Shown one piece after another: positions 2,121 to 19,484 of a stretch of 20,000 nt of DNA (the first letter of the stretch is position 1; each line of letters begins with the position of its first letter). The notes under the pieces are model-generated. The model was not told where the DNA came from and ran no database searches. It was given only the letters and a program-made list of their open reading frames with translations. Location of the stretch: contig JBNGIO010005634.1 in NCBI GenBank assembly GCA_049999805.1, positions 48,330 through 68,329 on the forward strand, given 5' to 3'. The position numbers were made by a program, and so were the translations under genes. This stretch comes from Folioceros fuciformis (lineage: Eukaryota).

Positions 2121-3474
2121 TAGGCTATCTCCCATGCCATACCTCAATTAACAAAGGTTATGTCGAAGTCGTCACATGAAACAAATAGCAAAACAATTGC
2201 AACACCATGATTCATGCAAACTATCCACTAGTGCACGGAAGACCCCCCCTCCCAGAATGTGGTATAACACCTCGTGTAGTTCCCCTCCTATATCAAGTTA
2301 ATAGCAAATAAGGTGTGAGCGTCCATCTCTTTGTTTTCCTCAAACAAGAAAACTTATCTCATTGTTCTTAGTGCAGTTTGATGACCCTACTATTTTGGGT
2401 TTAGATTGACCTGAATTTAAATTTTAAACTAACTTTCTAAGTAACTTTCTAAGAAATTGGTATCTACCCATCTCCATGTGAGGACTCATAGGACTTTTGT
2501 CCTCCATGTGCAAATCTTGTATAGTCATGGTTGTCAATACCCATATCTGCTTGTAAGTAATGTGAACATGAACTTACAGAAATAAGTGAAATTATTTACA
2601 TATGCTTCAAGGTACATAAACATATATAAAAAATATAATAGAAATTTTTTGAGGGCAGTATGAGAATCCTTTTTCCCTGCCACGACCCAAGAATATCTTG
2701 GTTATGGCTTTAGTTGTGTCCCACGACTCCGGAGTTTTGTTCTCCGGCTGTCCCACATCACCGGGGATACACATTGACAAAAAAAGACGAGGAAACGGGA
2801 AAAGAAAGCACTCGGAAGCTGCACGGGAAGCTTCGCCAGGCTGTAAGGTCGCAATGTTGCAACGATAATGGGCGCTCTGGTTGGCTGTCGGGAAAGCAGC
2901 CTCCTCCCCTGATGAAGGTTTTATCGCCTTTGACTGGGGTCCGCACGGGCCTTTGCTCATATATTAGTAAATGGGCACACCGCCGCCGTTTGAAGAAAGA
3001 GAGAAGACAGAGGCTGGAGGCGAAATCATTCGGTATGCATACTGCACTCTCCTGTCCTTCAGGTGCAACCGAAGGCGGAAGTGTCTGTCCATACCGACAT
3101 CTCAGTCTCTGATGTCTCAATCGCGCGTTGCAGTTGGAGACGCGAATCCATGACTGGTGTAGCCGAACCTTCCGTTTGGTCTTCGGTGTGCCAACGTCTC
3201 AGCGGCCTGGTAGTTTGACTTATTTGATCCAGTGCTTGCTCGGAACTTCATTGTTGTTCGTATGGAGGTGTGGATTCATTCCTTGCCGTAGCTGCGACAG
3301 CTTGTTTCATTTGTGTGCGGCGCAGGAGTGTGTAATGTGGTGTGCGCAGTCGTCAGAAGGCAATTCTGCATCAGATTCGGAGGCCTGTTGGTTTGATTGG
3401 CGCTGAGATTTGATCTGTGGCTTGCACGCAGTGTTTAATGACTTGATACGAGCTGTGGATTCGGAAGGTGGAAA

Positions 3475-4434
3475 ATGGCGGACAGGCGAGGGGAGGTTGC
3501 GCCGGGAGGTCCTCGCCGGAGCGTGGGTACGAGAGATGGGGAGGTTCCCAGGCTGGAGAGAGGAGGGAGCAGGGGGGAAGGCGGGCTGCCTCAACGCCCT
3601 GGTGTAGATCCTGTGCTAGGACGCGCCAGGTCTGCCAGCTCGAATCCGTTTGTGGACGACCCGGCCATGGCCGGTAGGACTGAGCCGCTTCCACCAAATG
3701 CTCCTCCTCCTGCGGACGAGCTTTTATGGAATCCACTTCTCAGTCGGAGCGGGGCTCGCTCCAGGGGATCCAATTCGGGCAGGCGGTCACAGGCAGAGGA
3801 CTCTGCTCGGTGGAATCCGCTGCTGTCCCGGGCCGGATCGCGCCACAGTCAGCCACTGGGGGATGATGCTTGGAATCCCGTTCTCAGTCGAGCGAGGTCG
3901 GGGAGCTCCAACATAGGGATGGACTACGTGCGTGGAGCCTCTACCAACGATGGCTCTGTTATGGCAGCCGCCACTGCGTTTGACCCATCTGTCTTGTTGC
4001 AGGAGGGTCTCGGGGAATGGAAGGATCGTAATTTCAATCTTGCCTACATCAAGAAGGTGCAGAGTTTCAAAGGAAGGAATGTTGAGGAGCTGATGAGAAG
4101 TGCGAGCCGAGGTGCTGAGGAGAAGGGGCAGGGGGAGACTGTGGAGGAGCCTGTCAGGATGGACTACTCTTTGGACCTTCCCAAGGACTTCTACGATGTT
4201 CTGGCAGCTGCACCGCACGCTGCTTTGATACATCTTGTCATCCTCTACCATCAGGCGCTTTGGAAGAAAGGTTTTCTCTCCGAAGCAGATAAGATTGCAA
4301 GGACCTTGTCGGAGCTCCGCATTCCAGACCAGATATCTCAGACGGAGCTGAGGGGCATGGATCTTCTGCTCAAAGATGGGCTGTTGCAGTACATGCAGCG
4401 TGTCAGCCCACATTTGCCAGTTATTCCCACCCAG
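3475..4434 (+). other. ABCG exon 1: 320-codon N-terminal extension (low-complexity R/G/S-rich region with repeated WNP[LV]LSR motif, followed by a helical segment)
   Basis: ATG at 3475 in a good context (GAAA-ATG-G), open frame to a CAG|GT donor at 4434/4435. The next exon continues PTQ-IVKFKSLSYS, matching the PDR 'P.vEVRFenLsv' entry into NBD1. Confidence 0.75.
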
Positions 4435-7400
4435 GTTGGTGCTGTGTCCTTCTCTTCTGCTATGGTGACCGCATGGGCCATGTCTTTATTTTGCAAGCGA
4501 GGTTGTTATCTGAAGGGGAACTGTTTGGCTTTCAGATTGTCAAGTTCAAAAGTCTCTCTTACAGTCGGGAAGTGGTCAGACCGGATATTCCGTATGAGAC
4601 CATGTACACCAAGGTGAGCAGGAGTGGTACATGTCACCGTAGTGAATCCCCCCAACATCGTGACATCTCACGGAGTGGGTTCTTACGCTTGCTGACAGGT
4701 GATGGGTTGTATTGCTGGGCCCTTGAAGAAAAAACCTGTCCCTGAGACGGTTCACTTTCTCAAAGATGTCACAGGCTACTTGATGCCGGGCACGCTCACT
4801 CTGATTGTAGGTAATGGTGGAGCGAACCCATGTGTCGTCATCGTCCAACTCCGACTTCGTAGTACGTAGCATTTTTTGTTCTTAGATTTGTCCATGAAGG
4901 CTTAACCTTCTCCGCACGCTCTCTGGTACAGGTCCTCCTGGTTGTGGTATGAGTATTCTGCTGAAGTTGTCTGCTGGTCGTCATCCTCTGCCGGGTGCCC
5001 ACGTTGAGGGCAGTGTCACCTACAACAATAAGGAAGTCAGTGGTCTCCTGTACCAACGCCTTGCTGGTGTTATTGAAAATCGGGACGTCCATCTCGCTAA
5101 CTTGACTGTGCGGGAAACTTTGGAGTTCGCCAGAGATGTGTCACTGGCTTGGAGTCCTAAGATGTATGGGCCAGAATTGCTGCGAATGTTATCCGAGGCT
5201 CTCGAAGCTGGACAAGATCCGAAACTGGAGCTTACCCTCAGCATGTTGGGTTTGAAAAGGGTTGCTGACCGCCCTGTGGGGGCACAACTGACGGAAGATG
5301 AAAGACACCGCTTGACAGCAGCGGAGGTGGTGGCAGGGGCCTATGCTGTTTATCTTTTCGATCAACTGAATGCTGGCCTGGATGATTCGGTAACGTATGA
5401 CCTCGTGAACAGCCTTCGGATCTTCACCCGTGTCCGCCATTTCACTGTGATGGCTTCACTGTTTCAGCCATCGGCTGAAGTGTACGACCTTTTCGACAGA
5501 GTCATCGTTCTGGACAAAGGGCAGGTGGTGTTCCAGGGTCCTCGCGAAGATGTGTTACCATATTTTGAAAAACTTGGGTAAACTCCATGCGAAGGGTTGC
5601 TTTCTGAAGGTTTCTACTCTGCTGCGGGTCTGCTTGATCAATGCATTTACAGTGGCGACTGCACTGTTGTGTTGGCAGATATTTTAAGCCAATTCATCTG
5701 GGAATTGGTGAATTTTTGGGTGAAGTCACCACTGAGGAGGGTAGACAGTACCTTCGGAATGGCTTTCCGCCACTCAGCTTGGATGATTTCGTAACTGCCT
5801 TTCGTGCATCCGATGCCTATGCACACATTTGTCAAGTTGTAGACAGTCCAGTCCTGACGCAGCAGGTCTGGGTGCAGGTAAATTGCTGCGTTTTGCATGG
5901 TTTCAAGTTTGTTGTAATGTCAAGATTCAGCACTTCAAAACACAGCTGTGTCTGCAAGCGAAGAAAGAAGCAAAAATTTTTGGAAGTTTCTTCTGAGTCT
6001 CATCGGGCTCCTCATGGCAGGGTTCTCAGCCTATCGGGTTAGACCTTGTAGATCGTCAGGACACGCTCGGCGCCACGGAGCTTCCTTCAACAGTGGTTGC
6101 AGGGCTATCTGCTACTAGCAGTCTTCAGACTACATCAATGGATCAAACCTTAGAGGTCCAGCCTGGTGACGAAGTTGTTGCGTTTGGAGGGCCTTCAGAA
6201 ACTTTGCACTACTTGAAGGCAGAAAACCTGTCAGCAACTGAAGTAAGAAGGGCCATCGATCAGATTCAGGGCCCCGTGCGTTTGCAACTTCAGAGAACTG
6301 TGAAGGAGGTGTGTGCTTCGTGTCATGGTTCTGTTGGTTTGACTGTAACCCTTCACCTGCCTAGTCTCTGGTGTAATGCTGCTGATCCTACAAATGGTGG
6401 AGGTGTAATTGATTGTTATGACCTGGCGAGCAGGTAGATAACGACACAATCAACCGACAATTCACGGAGGATTACATTCTGAGTCCTGGTAGTGAATTCA
6501 GGAGACTTTTACAACGGGAGGTGACAGTCGCCTGGAGGAATAAGTTTTCTCTGGGTCTACGCCTATTTCAGGTCTGTTCTCCCAAGTTTTGACTGCCCGC
6601 ATGATTTTCATAGCTGCAGCATTACTTTGCATAACCGTTGTACATTTCTAAGCTCGTGTTACTGTTGTGCAGATACTTTTGATGAGCTTGTTCACAGGTT
6701 TCATCTTCTTCCGTGTGCGAAATAAACCGAAGCAAAATAATATGAATTTGTTACGGGGCTCATATTTTGTCTCACTTCTGAACATGACGTTGTTCAATCT
6801 GGGACAAATCCCTGTTTTGATGGAGGAGAGGGCAATTTACTACAAGCAGCAAGGCCAACACTTCTATCGTCCCTCAACTTTCCTGTTTGCAAAGATTTTT
6901 GGAAGCATGCCAGTTTCGTTGGCTGAGGTACAGCTCTTATTCTGATTCTTGCTGTCACTTTGGTACGTTAGTCCCTCTAGGTCTTCTAATTGCTTCCCTT
7001 GGTCTTCCAGGCAACAGTGTGGACCTTGATAGTGTATTACACGACGGGCCAAACTTTGTCGGNNNNNNNNNNNNNNNNNNNNNNNNNNNNNNNNNNNNNN
7101 NNNNNNNNNNNNNNNNNNNNNNNNNNNNNNNNNNNNNNNNNNNNNNNNNNNNNNNNNNNNNNNNNNNNNNNNNNNNNNNNNNNNNNNNNNNNNNNNNNNN
7201 NNNNNNNNNNNNNNNNNNNNNNNNNNNNNNNNNNNNNNNNNNNNNNNNNNNNNNNNNNNNNNNNNNNNNNNNNNNNNNNNNNNNNNNNNNNNNNNNNNNN
7301 NNNNNNNNNNNNNNNNNNNNNNNNNNNNNNNNNNNNNNNNNNNNNNNNNNNNNNNNNNNNNNNNNNNNNNNNNNNNNNNNNNNNNNNNNNNNNNNNNNNN

Positions 7401-10351
7401 NNNNNNNNNNNNNNNNNNNNNNNNNNNNNNNNNNNNNNNNNNNNNNNNNNNNNNNNNNNNNNCCACAGCCTTGGTCATAAACGAATTCAACTCTGGTAGC
7501 TTCAGCATGCTCTGTGGGGACATACCCAATATCTTAAATCTGCCTCAGTGTAATGGCCGACCCGAGAACACCATTGGTCATGCATACTTGGCGAGAGGTC
7601 AATTCTACACCGGATACCATTGGATCGGTATCGCAGTGGCTTGCATCCTTGGCTGGATAGTCCTTTTCAACACATTGGCGTATCTCGCACTCGCCAAAAT
7701 CAGGCATGTTGAACCACCTCGGGTACCCGACAATCGCCAGGCAAGTGTTTTGTGGATGCCAATGCTGGAAATTTCCAAGTCGTCAATGTGGGGAGTGTGC
7801 TGTTGGTCTCACTGTGGTTGGTTTTCTGTTCGTTCTTCTCAGCATAAGCATAACAGCTCCATGCAAGTTGCAGCGGAAGATGTGGAATGGGCAGAAGCTG
7901 CAAGGCAGAAGCTTACCCATACAGCTGTACCTGTGACTCTGTCCTGGCATGAACTCAGCTTCGATATTTTCATACCCCAAATCCAAGAAACTCGATCCAT
8001 TTTGAAGTATGTATCTGGTTGGGCAGAACCCGGTGACATGCTCGGCATATTGGGTTGTACAGGTTCAGGGAAGACAACTCTGCTCAACTGCCTTGCAGGT
8101 TCTCCACCTTTCTGGTAGCTTGGGTGTGTCGTTTGTCTTTCTCCAGGGCTCTGGACTTCACACTTCTGTATCTGTTGCTGTGCAGGACGCAAAGTGGACT
8201 TGTCCAGGGTAGGAGGGCAAATATTAGTCAACGGGTTCCCTCGAAATCAGAAAACTTTCTCAAACGCTGTCGGATATGTTGATGTTTTCGAGGCCTACCC
8301 ACCTTACATGACTGTAAAAGAAGCAGTTGCTTTCAGTGCAACTATGAGCCTTGGCAGGCACTCGACAGCTCAGAGCCGTAGAGAGTTTGTTGAAGAGGTA
8401 GTCCAATCATATCAGCCCACCCTTATCGCTTGTAAGTGCCAATGCTCTTGTCTTGGATAGAATGTTGACGACCTATGGGTTCCCTGGTTAGATATTGAGC
8501 CTCGTGGAAATCAAGCACTTCGAAGACGCATTGGTGCTCTCCTTGGGCGAGAATGTGTTGGCGAAAGACCGGGCTGTGCGAATGGCTATAGCGTCAGAAC
8601 TGGCGTCTAATCCAAGTGTCATTTTCCTTGACGAACCCACAAAGGGACTGGATACCCAGGCTGCGGTACACGTGATCGATTCTCTTCGGGTACGTGTGGA
8701 GTATAACGTGCTGAATGAAGCAAGCTTGTTGGAAGTTCAGTGTGTGACCTTTGACTGGATGCTCCGCAGCATATCGCAGCAACAGGAAGGACCATAATTA
8801 GTACTTTGCAACATCCAAGTCAGAGACTGCTCTCAGCATTCACGAACGTCACGGTTTTGAAGAAGGGTGGATCAATTGTTTATTTTGGTTCAGTTGGCAA
8901 GAATGGCAACTATCTGCGGGTATGTCGTTGAGCTTATGCGAGCATTCCTCATGTTCATGCGAAGTATTTCTGACAAATTGCCGGGCACCATGACCTTTGA
9001 TCGTTGCGCTGCAGGAGTATTTTGAAGCCATCCCAGGCACACCTCTGTGCCCTCCAAACAAGAATGCTTCCACCTTTGCTATCGATGTGATAGGAGATGG
9101 TGTGGCCAATCTGGTCGCCGTCAAGGACTATGCGTTCGAGTACCGAGTGAGTGATCTGGCTCTAAACAACCATGTGAACCTGCAGAGATTGCGACGGGAT
9201 AAGACTGGTCCTGAACTCATGGGAACGGGTTACCGTGCATCGCAAGGACAAATGTTGGCGGAGGTTGTGATTAGGATGCAGAAAATGTATTGGAGAAACG
9301 TGAACTACAGCTGGGCGCGGATGATGTTTGTGACGGTCATGGGTTTATTACTCGGCTCCGTCTACTTTGATGCAAAGTACCTTACAACGCCGAAAATGAA
9401 TAAAAGGGCCTTCAGTATCTTCATATCGTGTGTGCTTATGGGCATCACCAATGCTCAGAACGTGATACCACAGCTTCTGTCACACAAATTAGTATACCTA
9501 CGAGAAGCAGCGGCCAACCACTACAGTCCTCTGCTGTACAACATTTCCTGGGGTTTAGCGGAGGTAATATTCTTTGCAGCCCAGAACAAGGGGTTGGCAC
9601 TTCGCGGCTTCTGTTGGTTTGAGCTTTCATCTGAAAGTATGTATGACTACATGACGAGCCTCACTGTGCATGCAGATTGTTTACCTTACGGTGGCCACGA
9701 TGATATTCTGTGGCATCTTCCTTGGCATGTCTCAAATCGCAGTCGGCGATGCGAAAGACTTCTTCCAGTACTGGTTCATCCTTTTGGAATTTACGCTCGC
9801 CATTACATTTTTTGGCATGTTTTTGGCAGTTGTCTCTCCTGTTCCACAGGTAAGCATTTATCTTTTCTGTTCGGTCGTTATCCTACAGAGTTCTGTTACG
9901 GTTCTGTTCGGTGCTAACTCAATGTTTGGTTGTGCAGATTGCGGCTGTGTTGGTGCCAATTGTCATCAGCATGTGGGTGTCAACTGGCGGTGCAGTTATT
10001 ACGCACAGGCTGCTGCTGAAGCCTTTTGAATGGATGTTTTGGACAAATCCACTGCAGTACGCTCTGAACAGCTTGACATCCATTGCCTTCTTCTGCGACA
10101 CTTTCAAGCCGGAGTGTCTGGATGGTGGAGCGAATATGGCCTGTTTAAACGACGCAAGCAAATGTCCGCTATGTGACTGTCCACGCCTGGTTGATGCGAA
10201 TAACATATTCGTGTGGACGCAACTCAAGTTCAACCGGTCGTTGAACCACGGCCGTCTTGGCATCGACATGGCAGCGTTGGCCGCTTTGTGTATTTTTTTC
10301 AGATTTCTAGCTTACCTAGTGCTCTCGTATCGCAAGAAAAAGAATTGGTAG
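3475..10351 (+). CDS. Full-size ABCG (PDR-topology) ABC transporter-like protein with internal PDZ-like domain and degenerate NBDs; spliced, partly interrupted by an N-gap
   Basis: Hand-built exons with frame-consistent splice sites: 3475-4434, 4536-4613, 4699-4810, 4932-5577, 5679-5877, 6021-6308, 6434-6571, 6673-6927, 7011-7062(gap), (gap)7463-7740, 7843-8098, 8186-8397, 8492-8689, 8770-8919, 9015-9563, 9676-9849, 9938-10351 (TAG). PDR-type motifs: [165 protein letters not shown]. The NBD-TMD-NBD-TMD order is that of the ABCG family. Confidence 0.93.
4699..5577 (+). other. NBD1 of the ABCG protein (degenerate)
   Basis: Walker A GPPGCGMS (K->M, codon 4949-4951), Q-loop region GVIENRDVH, signature LTEDE (5288-5302), Walker B/D-loop VYLFDQLNAGLD (E->Q, 5363-5365). 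Confidence 0.88.
5857..6296 (+). other. PDZ-like domain inserted between NBD1 and TMD1 (split by intron 5878-6020)
   Basis: Spliced peptide TQQVWVQ|GSQPIGLDLVDRQDTLGATELPSTVVAGLSATSSLQTTSMDQTLEVQPGDEVVAFGGPSETLHYLKAENLSATEVRRAIDQIQGPVRLQLQR. It matches the PDZ pattern: betaA, a GLGF-type loop (PIGL), 'LxxGDxI/VxxxxG', a 'S/T..EV...I' alphaB helix and a terminal 'PVRLxLxR' strand. Recognised by eye; no HMM was run. Confidence 0.78.
7063..7462. other. Assembly gap (400 N) inside TMD1 of the ABCG gene
   Basis: Run of N between ...YYTTGQTLS and ALVINEF...; the central TMD1 helices are hidden. Confidence 0.99.
7741..7842 (+). other. GC-AG intron (102 nt)
   Basis: CAG|GCAAGT is a consensus GC donor. 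The acceptor has a pyrimidine tract, TTCGTTCTTCTCAG. The intervening translation (ASVLWMPMLEISKSSMWGVCCWSHCGWFSVRSSQ) looks non-coding. Confidence 0.65.
7930..8919 (+). other. NBD2 of the ABCG protein
   Basis: Walker A [9 protein letters not shown] and Walker B IFLDEPT are intact. Q-loop GYVDVFEAY, signature region VLAKDRAVRM and H-loop STLQHPS all deviate from PDR consensus. Confidence 0.9.
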
Positions 10352-10694
10352 AATGGCACGAATGTTTTGACCCTTGTAAATTGTTCTCACCTGATTGACG
10401 TGGCACCTTTACTCACTTTTTGTATAGTCTTCAGATTTCTAGCAATCTTGTACCGCAAGGGCGAGATTTGGTAAGACAGCATCGATGCCTAGATTCTTGT
10501 AAATTGATATTACCTTATTACTACCGCACAGGTCATTCTTTAGTGGCTTCTTACCGTTTGCCATTACGAGAGCAAAGAGACTCTACATTTTTGTTTCCTT
10601 ACCAAAGAAAAAGGAAAATGAGCAAGATTTCTGCACAAATTTCTTCTTTTTTAAGAATACTGTAATCCTTCCAATTACGGACCTGATAATTATG

Positions 10695-13600
10695 TTACAC
10701 CCACACTGCAGACGGATATGTCTCCATCTCGGTTGCCAATTCCGACGTCAGCTTCTCTGTTTCGTCATCACAACCGCCTGCAAAGTTGTACACGCGATAA
10801 GATAGCTGAAAAGCTCCCCACAGCATCTGCAGGCAGATCTTCATCCTGTTCAGCTCGTACGATGGGTTTCCCCCGTTGCCTTGTGTTGTCAGGGATTTCA
10901 CTCTTTTACTCTCCTGCGCCAGAGAACATTGGTCTCACCTCACTGAAAAACTGAAAATTCTGACAAAGCAAGACGCTGTAGAGGACCATTGTTTTCAGGA
11001 GTGACTATTGTGACATGTTACTTACTTCGAGTGCCATGATTACAGAACGGGAGGCCAGTCCAACCATGCCTTCTTTGATACGGACGACAATGCTGAAATC
11101 AAACTGAATCTTGTGCCCTGAGAAACGCTTCATGTCATCCTCTTTGTTCCTCTCCACAGCTTCAACCTCTTTCTTCACCTACATTAATTTGCAGAACGTA
11201 AAAATGTAAGAAGGAGAAGCAACGATGAGAGGAGCCTCTTCAATCATAGCACCAGCGGGACTGGTGGAGCGAGATACTTTGTTAGGCAAATACTGCTCCT
11301 GATCCTAACCTTTTCAAAATACAGATTGACTCTATCAAGTTGCTCTGAAGCAGGGGGATCAACTCTCCATTTCTCCACATGCTGTGCCATGGCAAGCAGT
11401 TTTGAGTACAAAGCTGCTGCCAGACGTATAGTTTCGAGCTTCTTACTAGGGAACCCCTCAAACCGTGCCAGCACCTGGAGATTGCAGCTCAATTTAGTGT
11501 GATAGAGCCCAGGACCACCAAGGCACATTACGAAAACAAAGAATCCTGAAACTACGCATCGTGCAGGACCACATACACATGCTGCTTCCCACTCACCTGT
11601 GTCTCATCTGTCAAGTCTTCAAGCTGGATCTCAACGCTTTCATGGAAGCGCAACAGTTGATCCATGTTAGAGGTTTGAAACGATTCCACCGCCACCTTAG
11701 TTTCTAGTATACATTCAGCATGCCGTTGAACGTCATCTTCAATTTTTTGAAAATAGGCTGATCTGCAAGCATCGCAGAAAAATTCGGCCACTAAAATTAA
11801 GATGAGGCACAGGAAGCAAGACAACAAGGTCAGAAAATCAAAGGTTTACACATGATGGCAAAATGTCTGATGCAAGAAGTCCTTTTGAGGATCGTGTGAC
11901 CTACTTTTTTGTGATCTCGGCAAGTGCGTCAGCCATGCCCCCTTGAGCGTTTGCACTAGCTGAAGGTTTTGGCAGGGGTGCACTTATACCAGAGCTGGTC
12001 TTCTGGCTTGTATATCGCCCCTCCAGTTTACCTTTCATAGCTCTATACAAAACCCCCATCTTCGAGGACCTCCGGAGCCTCGAAGTCTTTTTCATCCTTA
12101 GTGGGCCTTTGCCTGGTTTTTTTTTTGGTGGAGGTGGGGGACGATTGGACCCAGTTATACCTGAAGGATGAGGAGGGGGAGGAGGGGGAGGAGGGGGAGG
12201 AACAAGAGGAATAAACATGGACGGAGTCTCCCTACTCTTGACCTCAGCGTCTTGCAAAGGATGTCTGTTGTCTGAAACATCCTGCTTGCGAGAGACCGGT
12301 GTAGGGGCGTCTGGTAGTACATTCTGAGCTGGCTCCTTTCTCTCATGGGCACCGAATAGGTCAACGGGTTTCAGGTCAAAAACTGGGCTGAACATGTTCG
12401 GAGTAAAGTTCACAAAAAGGGGAGACTCAATAGTTGGCTTACTACTCCTTCTGGGAGAGACTGGCATGGGATTGAAACCCATCAACATGGACGGCTCAGG
12501 CGAAAAACCTTGTCCCACACATTGGGGCACTGCATCAATATCCACTGGGTTATCGCCCTTCTCCAGGCGAACCTGATTCGGCTGTGCTTCCTTCTCAAAT
12601 ATTAAGGCAGAGGGAGGCCACAGCAATGGTACAGCTCCAATGTGCATATGATAAGACTGCAGAGCATCTGGGGTGGGAGGAAGAACTGATGTGGGAGTGC
12701 ATGATCCTTTAGTAGAAGAGCAAGAATCAGACTCTTGATCCTGTTGGCCACTTAGATCTGATTTCTCTGCTCCTTCATCTGCAAGGATTTGCACCGATGC
12801 ATCGCCAGATTGCAATATATTATTGAGATCCTGTGAAGCAGAACTTCCCTGATCCTCAGATATTTGCACAGCAGATTTAGCATGCTTGTTTATTTCTTCA
12901 AGCATAAAAAATATCTTGTGGCCTACGTGTTCACAATGCCACAAACGAGTTAGCACATGGTTACTCCGGACCACAAGGAAACCATAATCAACACGTACAA
13001 CTGAATCAATCCACTTACTCAGCTGTTCCAGAGCAAAGGATTCATCCAGGGTATGACTCTTCAGCTTTGTGATTTTGTTTTTACTATTTCTGAACTTGCT
13101 CCTTGTACTCCGTTGCAAGTAGTGTGAGTGCTGAGTAGGAGTTGAGGGCGAGCTCGCCTTCACCTGACGAGGGGAGTCCCGGTTTCTGTCCCAGAAGCTT
13201 CTCTTCCCCTGCAACTCTGCATTGTCAAACCATTTGCACATTGAACTCCAACAACAAGCGGCTTCAAGTGAATCAAGTAATGTAAGTGTGTTCATCACGA
13301 TTAGCTAGATACCTTGAAGGTGCACCTTCGCAGCCTTCTCGGTGTTCTCAACAGCAATGGGAACTTTTTCCTCATCCTGAAGTCATAGGGCAGACTCGAT
13401 ATTACCATTTCTACAAGGTGAGCAGAGCACTTTCTCCAGACATCAGTTAAAGCATCACACTACTAGGGTTGAGGTTATCATACACTGGATTCACCATCAC
13501 TGCCACTGTACATGGAACCATGAAGATTGCTCTGCGCATCAAACAATCAAATATAAAGGCTTCTTGTACAACACACACGTACTGCTTTCCTCAGCAAAGC

Positions 13601-17532: not shown

Positions 17533-19484
17533 TCATTGTTGAAGGAGCGCCTTCTTCTCCCATATGCAGTAACCATTTCCTACGGCTGCCACATTGTATT
17601 CATCTAAACTTGGCGCTAAATTACCGATCTCAATTCTACCTCCGATCTTCATCACCACTCTGTCGTCAATCCGGGCTACGTACACGTCATGCTCTGCTGC
17701 AACAATTTCAACGTTACTCTTGGAGTTGATTCCATTGCGATTCCGGATGCTGATGAAGTTCCTCAGCTCCTCCTTGAATCCCCAGTCGAAATAGTGATCA
17801 TAGAACTGCAGGAATGAGTGCGAAGACCAAGGTTCAATCACGTGCTTTGGGCGACAGCAAAAGAAGAAATCGGGCGATTGCATGAGGACGAGGAGCTTAC
17901 GATGCAAGGAATGCCAGGGTGTGTCATGATGTACGCGTATCCCTGCATTACTTTGTCGGCGGGGAAGGGCCAGTGGGCTTGCGTGGATCCAGTGTCGTGG
18001 TTGTCTATGAAGGTCACAGACCTGGAAGGCCAATACCCCAGCATACCAGGAGGCTTGTTGTTATTATCCCTCAGCCGCCACAGTTCCCCGTTGACAGCCT
18101 GCTGGAGTATCCCCTTGGTGGTGAAGTCGAAGGCCGTGGCTCGGTCTCCAGTAGCATGCACCCAATTCACAAGCTCCTGACGGTGGCTGTCCTGGTTGTA
18201 GTCCAGCCCCTGGTCGCCATACCTGCACGTGGTCCAGACCTCGCCGACAGAGAACTCCGGCTGCGTTCGTTCAATATACATGCCGACGAAGTGGCCCGCG
18301 AAACCCTTGGCGAAGTCGAACCTCCAGCCATCGAACCCGATGTCCGTCTTGAGCCACTTCATCCAGTCGGAAAGGTCGTCCTGCACTGTCTGGTTGGTGT
18401 GATCCAGGTCCGGGGCGGCGCCGAAGTCTTCACCAGTGTCAGGGTTCCCCGATCCATCGCTGTAAGGGAAATCGTTCCCGGCAATGGCCCAGGGGCCCCA
18501 GTCGAGGCGGTCATCCGGGGTACCTCCTTCGAAGAGACACCACTGTCCTCTTTCATCTTGCCTGTCCCCGCAGCGATGGTTGATAACGATGTCGGCGATA
18601 CACCGCACTCCCTTGCTGTGAAATGCATCAATCACAGCCTTCAACTCATCCTCGTTGCCGTAATGCGTGTTGTCCAGATCCAGAAGCTTGTTAGGCATGT
18701 ACCCTGCCAAGCCACGACAGGCAATGTAACTAAACCGCGGTCCAGGGCCGTACAAACACACTGATCCGTGCCCTACCCTACTGACAACGAAATCCGATAA
18801 CTTCCAAGCAGGGGGAATGTTGTGATATATCCACACACCTTGAGGTGCCACAGAGTGCGTTGCCGGAGGAAACCAGATGTCCGTCACACCAGCTTCCGCC
18901 AAATCATCCACGTTCCTCTTCAGCACGTTATACCAGCCCTCCTTGTGCCTCCACGACTCCCAGTTGAATCCCTGCGGAGCCAGACGCGTCAAAGCCAAAT
19001 CCTCCCCCCCCCTCCTCACGCACGATAGCACCACTCAGCGACATCTAACACTGACCTGAAACATGATGATCTTGGTCCAGTCAGCCTTGATGTTACCACC
19101 ACGGCACGAAGGCTGCTCCACCTCCTCCGCGGGAGCATCCAGGGTAGCCTCACCAGTGATCTCCACCGCATTCAACACAATTTCCTCAGCCTGTGCAGCA
19201 CCATTAGCCACTCCGTTCTCGCCCTCGTGAGCCTTCTCCTCTGCATCCTCGGAGACTTCCTGCACTGCTTCCAGAGGAGGAGCTGCGGAGGATACACATC
19301 GCCAGCTCCAGCTTCGTTCCCTCACTGCGCGAGACCGCAACCGGGGACCTGCGAAGGGAGAGCAGGACGGCTTTACGGCAACGGTGGAAGCTGCGGCACC
19401 TTCCTGGGGCAGCTCCCTTGCAGGCGCATTCAGAAGAATTTCGCAGTGCACCAGAGATCTGAAACCCGACACCATGGCCGCCAT
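17533..19484 (-). CDS. AMY: Alpha-amylase, GH13 plant type (AMY1/family-one-like catalytic domain) with an N-terminal extension of about 135 aa; about 545 aa in total
   Basis: Exons 19484-19056, 18971-18839, 18703-17901, 17805-17533. Motifs: [28 protein letters not shown] (nucleophile D), SVGEVW (acid/base E), [11 protein letters not shown] (D), [23 protein letters not shown], and a C-terminal beta domain ([14 protein letters not shown]...GNGYCIWEK). The three intron positions resemble cereal secreted amylase genes. Confidence 0.96.

Follow-up and report, generated by a model that had tools for sequence, protein, structure and literature searches.

A PDR-type ABCG gene of Folioceros fuciformis and a plant clade predicted to lack a consensus ATP site

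Mechanistic models of ABC transporters presume at least one composite site that hydrolyses ATP. Such a site is built from the Walker A and Walker B motifs and the A-, Q- and H-loops of one nucleotide-binding domain (NBD) together with the signature motif of the other NBD (PMC7756269, PMC8421411; these and the further papers are cited from the parts of their texts that we consulted). The signature touches the gamma-phosphate (PMC7756269) and the Walker B glutamate polarises the attacking water, its exchange for glutamine being a standard block of hydrolysis (PMC8421411). Pdr5, ABCG5/G8, CFTR, TAP and TM287/288 are asymmetric, yet each of them keeps one consensus site (PMC7756269). Among the full-size ABCG proteins of plants, Cho et al. 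(2020) described an early-diverged 'V1-Type' in Chara, Klebsormidium, Physcomitrella, Sphagnum, Selaginella and Amborella, which was 'not detected in any other angiosperm' besides Amborella (PMC8359288). Here we analysed a window of 20,000 nucleotides (nt) of Folioceros fuciformis (GenBank assembly GCA_049999805.1, contig JBNGIO010005634.1, positions 48,330 to 68,329 of the forward strand), which contains on its plus strand, at 3475-10351, a gene predicted to code for a full-size ABCG of the PDR type. The product of this gene, called the window protein below, belongs to a clade of plant proteins in which neither ATP site matches the consensus.

ATP-site residues of the window protein and its clade

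We aligned the window protein with 88 homologues using MAFFT. These were the sequences of at least 1300 amino acids (aa) among the 120 matches listed for the exon of NBD1 (32 shorter ones were dropped), and 52 of them were canonical plant PDRs. At every column where the window protein deviates, the canonical residue was present in 49-52 of the 52 canonical PDRs, and the deviations are thus true departures from a very tight consensus. An earlier examination of the same DNA, made without database searches (the sequence-only reading), had quoted ten motifs, and all of them were found in the sequence at the positions given; its statement that both composite sites depart from the consensus was also borne out by the aligned columns. 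For the NBD1 Walker A, the motif itself stood, while the residues read just upstream of it turned out to be intronic, as the intron 4811-4931 falls within the codon of the first glycine.

Site 1 (NBD1 Walker A, Q-loop and Walker B with the NBD2 signature) has Met, Asn and Gln at the deviating positions and lies opposite VLAKDR. Site 2 (NBD2 with the NBD1 signature) keeps the P-loop and the Walker B Asp-Glu, and the D-loop of NBD2 is intact, but its Q-loop lacks the Gln, its His comes late and it lies opposite LTEDE. No consensus-complete composite site was found in the window protein when the motifs of both sites were compared. In ABCG2, the classical dead mutant has the Walker A Lys changed to Met, and in CFTR a Gly to Asp change at the second signature glycine (G551D) abolishes ATP-dependent gating. 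Site 1 holds natural versions of both classical inactivating changes, Lys to Met and Glu to Gln, and in site 2 the carboxylates of LTEDE stand where glycines should lie near the gamma-phosphate.

Among the 120 matches listed, the NBD1 exon ranked a set of long proteins (~1400-1750 aa) above every canonical PDR. Their sources were Calypogeia, Riccia, Marchantia paleacea, Physcomitrium, Ceratopteris, Selaginella and many seed plants, including Magnolia, Vitis, Eucalyptus, Camellia and several grasses; a search with the exon of the second transmembrane domain (TMD2) added Diphasiastrum (the closest relative, 58 %) and further ferns. A first tree (FastTree, LG+gamma, 89 sequences, 1351 columns) placed all 35 long sequences in one monophyletic group, with Shimodaira-Hasegawa (SH) support of 1.0 and a stem of 0.60. 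This clade was divided into subclade A, with Selaginella and the seed plants (26 sequences, SH 1.0), and subclade B, with the window protein, ferns, liverworts and a moss (9 sequences, SH 1.0).

The first alignment contained 34 clade members besides the window protein. The first glycine of the NBD1 signature was present in 0 of these 34 against 52 of the 52 canonical PDRs, and the second in 2 against 51. The catalytic Glu of NBD1, which all 52 canonical PDRs carry, was found in none of the 34 (Gln in 30, His in 2, Ser and Asn in 1 each). For NBD2, the Q-loop Gln was retained in 3/34 (52/52 in canonical PDRs) and the His in its canonical place in 0/34 (50/52 in canonical PDRs); a His one position later was shared by the window protein and 21 of the 26 members of subclade A, and occurred in 0 of the 8 others of subclade B. 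According to these alignments, the changes in the NBD1 signature, the NBD1 catalytic Glu (to Gln), and the Q-loop, signature and H-loop of NBD2 are clade-wide and ancient. Subclade A showed a replacement pattern of its own in NBD1, with the signature S-D-x-D (Ser in 26/26, Asp in 24/26 and 25/26) and a Walker B Asp-Gln in 26/26. The closest relative, from Diphasiastrum, has motifs near those of the window protein (GPPGCGRS, LTENE, LFDQ, GCTGAGKT and FLDEPT).

The Walker A lysines followed a different distribution in the two subclades. In NBD1, the Lys was present in 32 of the 34 other members, with 26/26 in subclade A, and besides the Met of the window protein it was replaced in Calypogeia (Thr), in one further sequence (Val) and in Diphasiastrum (Arg). 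In NBD2, it was present in 8/8 of the others in subclade B against 17/26 in subclade A, where the Walker B Asp was also replaced by Glu in 25/26. By these counts the retained P-loop differs by subclade, being that of NBD1 in seed plants and that of NBD2 in the subclade of the window protein. The conservation of the substitutions among orthologues, which the sequence-only reading had proposed for comparison, was therefore found for most of them, the Walker A Lys to Met change being the part that did not extend to the clade; judged from the alignment, the window gene has additionally lost the Walker A Lys of NBD1, a change specific to its lineage.

Seed-plant sequences (P0011-P0036) had an NBD2 P-loop of the form GGSKxSKx in dicots and magnoliids or GGANGSAA in grasses, together with an NBD1 GPPGSGKS that is kept. 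We considered whether the acidic NBD1 signature might pair with the basic P-loop of NBD2 (GGSKxSKx) and so form a latch that needs no nucleotide. The co-variation does not hold, since grasses combine GGANGSAA with the same acidic signature, and the idea is at best a remote one.

We also searched 1.84 billion representatives with the NBD1 exon and obtained 126 proteins at E<=1e-30; among the best 150 matches, 124 had an SGG-like NBD1 signature and 26 did not. A second tree included 15 sequences added from this search and from earlier matches. The degenerate clade was recovered again with SH 1.0, and it now held Spirogloea muscicola and two Mesotaenium proteins (Zygnematophyceae), whose NBD1 signatures are already degenerate (LTAGE, TDANE and LSAEQ). 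The loss of the NBD1 signature, which belongs to site 2, thus dates back at least to the ancestor that Zygnematophyceae share with embryophytes. The Spirogloea protein and one relative retain Asp-Glu in the NBD1 Walker B, and the signature loss is thus older than, or independent of, the Glu to Gln change.

Across 44 clade sequences, SGG in the NBD1 signature was found in 0/44, Asp-Glu in the NBD1 Walker B in 2/44 and Asp-Glu in the NBD2 Walker B in 7/44 sequences, the window protein being one of the last. A strict Walker A (GxxxxGK[ST]) was confined to NBD1 in 26 of the 44 and to NBD2 in 6 (among them the window protein), whereas 7 had it in both NBDs and 5 in neither; hence 39/44 have at least one. 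Of the five members without any, at least three resemble gene-model indels or truncations.

Three proteins, from Riccia fluitans (P0130), Chlorokybus (P0131) and Cymbomonas (P0136), formed the sister or outgroup to the degenerate clade, in a superclade with SH 1.0. They resemble the clade in length (1500-1708 aa) and in an 'ERHR' tail after the signature, and differ from it in having all-canonical motifs (VSGGE, DEISTGLD, GSSGAGKT, EQNDIH and HQPS), so that both of their sites look competent. On this tree and these motifs, the clade arose from long PDR-like ancestors with canonical ATP sites, of which at least some probably had the PDZ-like insert described below. Another protein, P0100, was considered as a stepwise intermediate with only site 1 degenerate and was discarded, because it was placed as sister at only SH 0.605 and fell on the canonical side once the tree was enlarged.

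Finally, we compared the degree of constraint among domains, using 21 of the 26 subclade A sequences (five short, gapped or indel-bearing ones were left out). Mean pairwise identity was 74.6 % for NBD1, 73.9 % for TMD1, 75.7 % for TMD2, 66.1 % for NBD2 and 61.6 % for the PDZ-like domain. In the canonical PDRs, which are mixed paralogues, the corresponding means were 77.3 % for NBD1 and 85.2 % for NBD2, and the NBD identity with canonical PDRs was ~34 %. Judged from protein-level identity and near-fixed replacement residues, the pattern of subclade A is not drift, and NBD2 is by the same comparison the most relaxed domain.

Gene model, independent runs and the PDZ-like insert

The gene comprises 17 exon blocks at 3475-10351 with a predicted product of ~1729 aa (Table 1), and inspection of the open reading frames (ORFs) found no in-frame stop in any of the 17 visible blocks. 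Of the visible introns, many of them short (80-143 nt), 14 are of the GT-AG type and one is GC-AG. A GT donor at 7723 was also tried as the end of exon block 10; it is disfavoured by the contig X3 described below, which supports the GC-AG cut. Pfam domains came in the order ABC_tran, ABC2_membrane, PDR_assoc, ABC_tran, ABC2_membrane, as in full-size ABCG/PDR proteins with their reverse topology. The two ABC_tran scores were weak (31 and 25.8 bits; cut-off 25); ABC2_membrane (PF01061) matched with E values of 5e-14, 1.9e-09 and 1.6e-05, and PDR_assoc (PF08370) with 31.6 bits against a cut-off of 24.9. In tblastn searches, homologues of 1628-1749 aa were collinear from end to end, and the match extended to the N-terminal extension and to the insert that separates NBD1 from TMD1. 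From these matches, the locus is predicted to code for a full-size PDR-type ABCG with the order N-terminal extension, NBD1, PDZ-like domain, TMD1, NBD2, TMD2.

Table 1. Coordinates of the window gene and of its ATP-site motifs, in positions of the 20,000-nt window.
Feature	Position	Strand	Remarks
Coding exon 1	3475-4434	+	N-terminal extension, 320 aa; from ORF, splice donor and tblastn to P0001, P0002, P0004
Exons 2, 3	4536-4613, 4699-4810	+	N-terminal strands of NBD1; GT-AG introns gone in X3
NBD1 Walker A GPPGCGMS	4810 + 4932-4954	+	Lys to Met, ATG 4949-4951
Exon 4	4932-5577	+	NBD1 core; Pfam ABC_tran E 4.4e-07, 31 bits (cut-off 25)
NBD1 Q-loop VIENRDVH	5069-5092	+	Gln to Asn
NBD1 signature LTEDE	5288-5302	+	Signature glycines are Glu and Asp
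NBD1 Walker B VYLFDQ	5348-5365	+	Catalytic Glu to Gln, CAA 5363-5365
NBD1 D-loop AGLD	5372-5383	+	
NBD1 H-loop SLFQPS	5456-5473	+	
Exon 5	5679-5877	+	NBD1 end and linker
Exon 6	6021-6308	+	PDZ-like domain, 96 aa, between NBD1 and TMD1; start from X3 joint
Exons 7-9	6434-6571, 6673-6927, 7011-7062	+	First part of TMD1; Pfam ABC2_membrane E 5e-14, X3 joints
Stretch of 400 N within the gene	7063-7462		Hides part of TMD1
Exon block 10	7463-7740	+	TMD1 end and PDR_assoc motif (Pfam E 1.3e-07, 31.6 bits; cut-off 24.9)
GC-AG intron	7741-7842	+	GCAAGT...TCTCAG; X3 joint 7737->7840, movable by 3
Exons 11-14	7843-8098, 8186-8397, 8492-8689, 8770-8919	+	NBD2
NBD2 Walker A GCTGSGKT	8053-8076	+	Exon 7843-8098; consensus P-loop
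NBD2 Q-loop GYVDVFEAY	8272-8298	+	Exon 8186-8397; without Gln
NBD2 signature VLAKDR	8555-8572	+	Exon 8492-8689; non-consensus
NBD2 Walker B VIFLDE	8618-8635	+	Exon 8492-8689; Asp-Glu kept
NBD2 H-loop STLQHPS	8800-8820	+	Exon 8770-8919; His one position late
Exons 15-17	9015-9563, 9676-9849, 9938-10351	+	TMD2; Pfam ABC2_membrane, tblastn, X3 joints
Stop codon	10349-10351	+	End of exon 17

The letters and the splicing were checked in three sequencing runs (X1, X2 and X3), which were chosen from runs matching 4500-7060 and compared with 3300-10600. X1 and X2 are DNA-type runs of one sample, possibly the source sample, and X3 is from another sample and another study under the same organism label. 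The contigs of X1 and X2 were collinear with the genome, with 0 differing letters. X3 gave a single contig of 9448 nt that fits 3431-10600, also with 0 differing letters, and skips every visible intron; in particular, all 15 visible introns were absent, 14 of them seen as joints and the last (9850-9937) from the record coordinates. The same contig bridges the N run inside the gene with 231 nt, a length that keeps the frame (52+231+2 = 285 nt; 77 codons). A contig without introns beside intron-bearing DNA contigs means that X3 reads as complementary DNA (cDNA). The gene is spliced as modelled in its visible part and is expressed-like.

These runs also bear on two points of the sequence-only reading. 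Its proposal to examine raw reads at 4949-4951 and 5363 led to confirmation of ATG and CAA, with 0 other letters in the contigs of X1-X3, and since none of the three runs differs, the Met codon 4949-4951 and the Gln codon 5363-5365 are real. Its view that exons, splice sites and frame are intact agrees with the open visible blocks and with the absence of the visible introns from X3. In addition, X3 carries 138 letters before 3431 that have no place on 3300-3430, which suggests an exon of the 5' untranslated region further upstream, and an intron within that region.

Exon 6 (6021-6308) could be aligned with each of 25 clade members. Identity ranged from 22 to 41 %; two positions were invariant and several others nearly so. 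It had no Pfam match at E<=5, PDZ profiles included. AlphaFold2, run on the exon 6 alignment, predicted a fold of the order E-E-E-H-H-E with a predicted local distance difference test (pLDDT) value of 75.1. When this model was searched against the PDB with Foldseek, all the entries listed at ranks 1-50 were PDZ domains, with modest scores (E 0.04-0.25, TMq 0.46-0.65, probability up to 1.00), and the nearest named clusters of the ESM Atlas all belonged to the PDZ clan (0.92). We therefore refer to the insert as PDZ-like, in the sense of a predicted fold.

A profile built from the inserts of the clade matched 9/12 further relatives and 0/15 canonical PDR controls. The relatives matched include two of the proteins with canonical motifs, those of Riccia (P0130, E 3.5e-15) and, weakly, Chlorokybus (P0131, 2e-4). 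The presence of the insert alongside canonical ATP sites in this lineage means that the insert is not evidence for loss of ATPase activity, and the suggestion of the sequence-only reading that the PDZ insertion is consistent with a putative role as nucleotide sensor, channel regulator or scaffold is weakened, given that the relative from Riccia fluitans carries both. From this distribution, the PDZ-like insert probably predates the loss of the ATP-site residues. The Mesotaenium protein P0132 was matched twice by the profile (residues 417-485 and 544-612), which reflects either a tandem duplication of the insert or an artefact of the gene model.

The N-terminal 230 aa of exon 1 are rich in Arg, Gly and Ser, and its last ~90 aa are conserved in the clade; the stretch just before NBD1 is common to the window protein and the clade members. 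No Pfam family matched the N-terminal exon 1 at E<=5, and the ABC_trans_N domain (PF14510) of plant PDRs was likewise without a match on this exon at that threshold. Exon 1 also contains three WNP[LV]LSR repeats (at nt 3727, 3811 and 3871), 20-28 residues apart.

In the remainder of the window, a further run of N is found at 166-265 (100), besides the one inside the gene (7063-7462, 400). The X3 contig continues for ~3.8 kb past 10600 and covers the downstream region. Among the four neighbouring ORFs scanned, three had no Pfam family at E<=5, including an ORF of 465 aa (11901-13298, minus strand). The ORF of 398 aa at 17838-19034 (minus strand) matched the alpha-amylase catalytic domain (PF00128, E 2.1e-11) and probably belongs, as a single exon, to a glycoside hydrolase gene nearby. 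An apparent echo of the last coding segment after the stop (~10404-10474) was rejected, as the exact match spans 14 nt only.

Possible functions and alternative explanations

Considering the residues of both sites, the window protein is probably a conserved ABCG that binds nucleotide and hydrolyses little or none of it. Such a protein would not run the normal ATP-sandwich hydrolysis cycle: nucleotide would at most be bound, in the window protein most likely at the NBD2 P-loop, and seed-plant members may bind it at the NBD1 P-loop. The ABCG scaffold would then be used otherwise than for pumping, for instance for nucleotide-dependent gating, for facilitated passage, or as a receptor or scaffold, with the PDZ-like domain as a putative docking module. 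The strict Walker A of 39/44 members fits retained nucleotide binding.

A broader proposal, which we advance tentatively and to which we give somewhat less than an even chance, extends this to the clade as a whole. It would be an ABCG-fold family that goes back to the ancestor shared by Zygnematophyceae and land plants, that lost hydrolysis at both sites while remaining under selection in many lineages, from zygnematophycean algae up to flowering plants, and that kept one P-loop and a PDZ-like docking domain, and it would be the first full-size ABC pseudo-transporter family. The single P-loop kept would be that of NBD2 in the lineage of the window protein and in most members from bryophytes, ferns and lycophytes, and that of NBD1 in seed plants. 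Its members would act as a nucleotide-binding, non-pumping membrane receptor, gate or scaffold.

Several observations weigh against a nucleotide-binding protein with little or no hydrolysis. In the NBD2 of the window protein, GxxGxGKT, the D-loop and the Walker B Asp-Glu are all retained and a His lies nearby; a strict NBD2 Walker A occurs together with a Walker B Asp-Glu in only 7/44 members, the window protein included, which makes slow or atypical hydrolysis at site 2 possible. The sequence-only reading had held that ATP is hydrolysed poorly or not at all, and of this the loss of consensus at both sites stands, while the intact Walker A and B of NBD2 weaken it. The TMDs are well conserved, which would be expected if the protein still transported a substrate. 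Uniformity is lacking within the clade, as two Zygnematophyceae-type members retain the NBD1 catalytic Glu, and the five members of 44 that lack a strict Walker A in both NBDs would, if real, speak for nucleotide binding being dispensable. X3 is labelled RNA by an automatic guess only, the spliced contig being the ground for calling it cDNA. Finally, we found in the literature no measurement of ATP binding or ATPase activity for clade members.

It is less likely, yet a reading to be taken seriously, that the window protein is a primary active transporter still, in which site 2 hydrolyses slowly or atypically without a consensus signature and site 1 has a structural or regulatory role, like that of Pdr5 or ABCG5/G8. 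With GCTGSGKT, VIFLDEPT, an intact D-loop and a His at +1 in NBD2, the window protein is better equipped for this than most of its clade; its TMDs and PDR_assoc motif are conserved, and a single dead site leaves asymmetric ABC proteins fully functional (PMC7756269, PMC8421411). This site 2 lies, however, opposite LTEDE and not [IV]SGG[QE], its Q-loop Gln is gone, and the active site of Pdr5 needs the NBD1 signature for its completion (PMC8421411). The NBD2 P-loop is moreover ruined in the seed-plant subclade (A), with the Lys in 17/26 and the Walker B Asp changed to Glu in 25/26, and hydrolysis at site 2 thus cannot be the conserved function of the clade.

We consider it improbable that nucleotide has no function at all and that the NBDs are purely structural, the protein serving as a scaffold or as a subunit energised by another protein. 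The five members of 44 without a strict Walker A in either NBD and the presence of a PDZ-like docking domain agree with this; at least one strict P-loop in 39/44, the NBD1 Lys in 26/26 of subclade A and the NBD2 Lys in 8/8 of the others of subclade B do not, and several of the five exceptions resemble model indels or truncations.

A decaying pseudogene copy of a PDR gene is highly improbable: many catalytic residues are gone and the ABC_tran scores are weak (31 and 25.8 bits), but the visible exon blocks are all open, the visible splice sites are all intact, a contig without the visible introns comes from an independent sample, and the same degenerate states are conserved across 44 sequences that range from algae to angiosperms, domain identity in subclade A being 66-76 %. 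The argument of the sequence-only reading against a pseudogene is thus strengthened by the spliced X3, by homologues that are collinear over the full length and by a clade that extends from Zygnematophyceae to angiosperms. Sequencing or assembly errors, in favour of which nothing speaks beyond the N run in the gene, are hardly credible as the source of the unusual residues, with 0 other letters over the sites in three runs from two samples and two studies and with near-identical motif variants in Diphasiastrum, the closest relative.

Comparison with known systems

The V1-Type of Cho et al. (2020) is probably the superclade found here, matched by taxon range only. The range of the superclade in our data comprises Chlorokybus, Cymbomonas, Spirogloea, Mesotaenium, liverworts, a moss, Selaginella and seed plants; in contrast to the restriction to Amborella among angiosperms, we found members in Magnolia, Coptis, Vitis, Eucalyptus, Camellia, Cornus, Cinchona, Parasponia and several grasses. 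The word 'Walker' does not occur in the text of that paper (PMC8359288), the part of it consulted mentions neither motif loss nor a PDZ-like domain, and a survey of Vitis ABC proteins does not, in the text consulted, single out the clade (PMC3823996). In the full-text literature, most subscription journals lying outside that search, we found no plant ABCG described as having a PDZ-like domain or as being degenerate at both sites. What appears to be new here is a PDR-type ABCG clade predicted to lack a consensus ATP site, with the window gene as a new member.

An expressed clade, conserved from algae up to grasses and trees, without a consensus signature, Q-loop and catalytic base in the relevant places would be a natural experiment on an ABCG scaffold without the power stroke, and it marks a land-plant gene family without an assigned function. 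None of the 34 other clade members examined was an Arabidopsis protein, which may explain why the family was overlooked. Physcomitrium patens and Marchantia-type liverworts offer tractable orthologues.

With canonical plant PDRs the window protein shares the reverse (NBD-TMD)x2 topology, two ABC_tran and two ABC2_membrane domains, the PDR_assoc motif and an NBD1 H-loop without His (Leu in canonical PDRs, Phe in the window protein). It differs from them in being 250-300 aa longer, through its N-terminal extension and PDZ-like insert, and in lacking the SGG, Walker A Lys and catalytic Glu of their NBD1 and the Q-loop Gln, LSTEQ and in-place His of their NBD2. CFTR and SUR are precedents for nucleotide sites that gate or regulate, with a non-hydrolytic site that holds ATP (PMC7756269). 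They differ in belonging to the ABCC subfamily, with a type I exporter fold, one degenerate site and a hydrolytic site 2. Site 1 of yeast Pdr5 is likewise degenerate in nearly all of its motifs, with the Walker A Lys and Walker B Glu lost and a non-consensus NBD2 signature (PMC7756269, PMC8421411). Site 2 of Pdr5 is fully canonical and is completed by the VSGGE of NBD1 (PMC8421411), whereas the corresponding site of the window protein lies opposite LTEDE, has lost the Q-loop Gln and has its His displaced.

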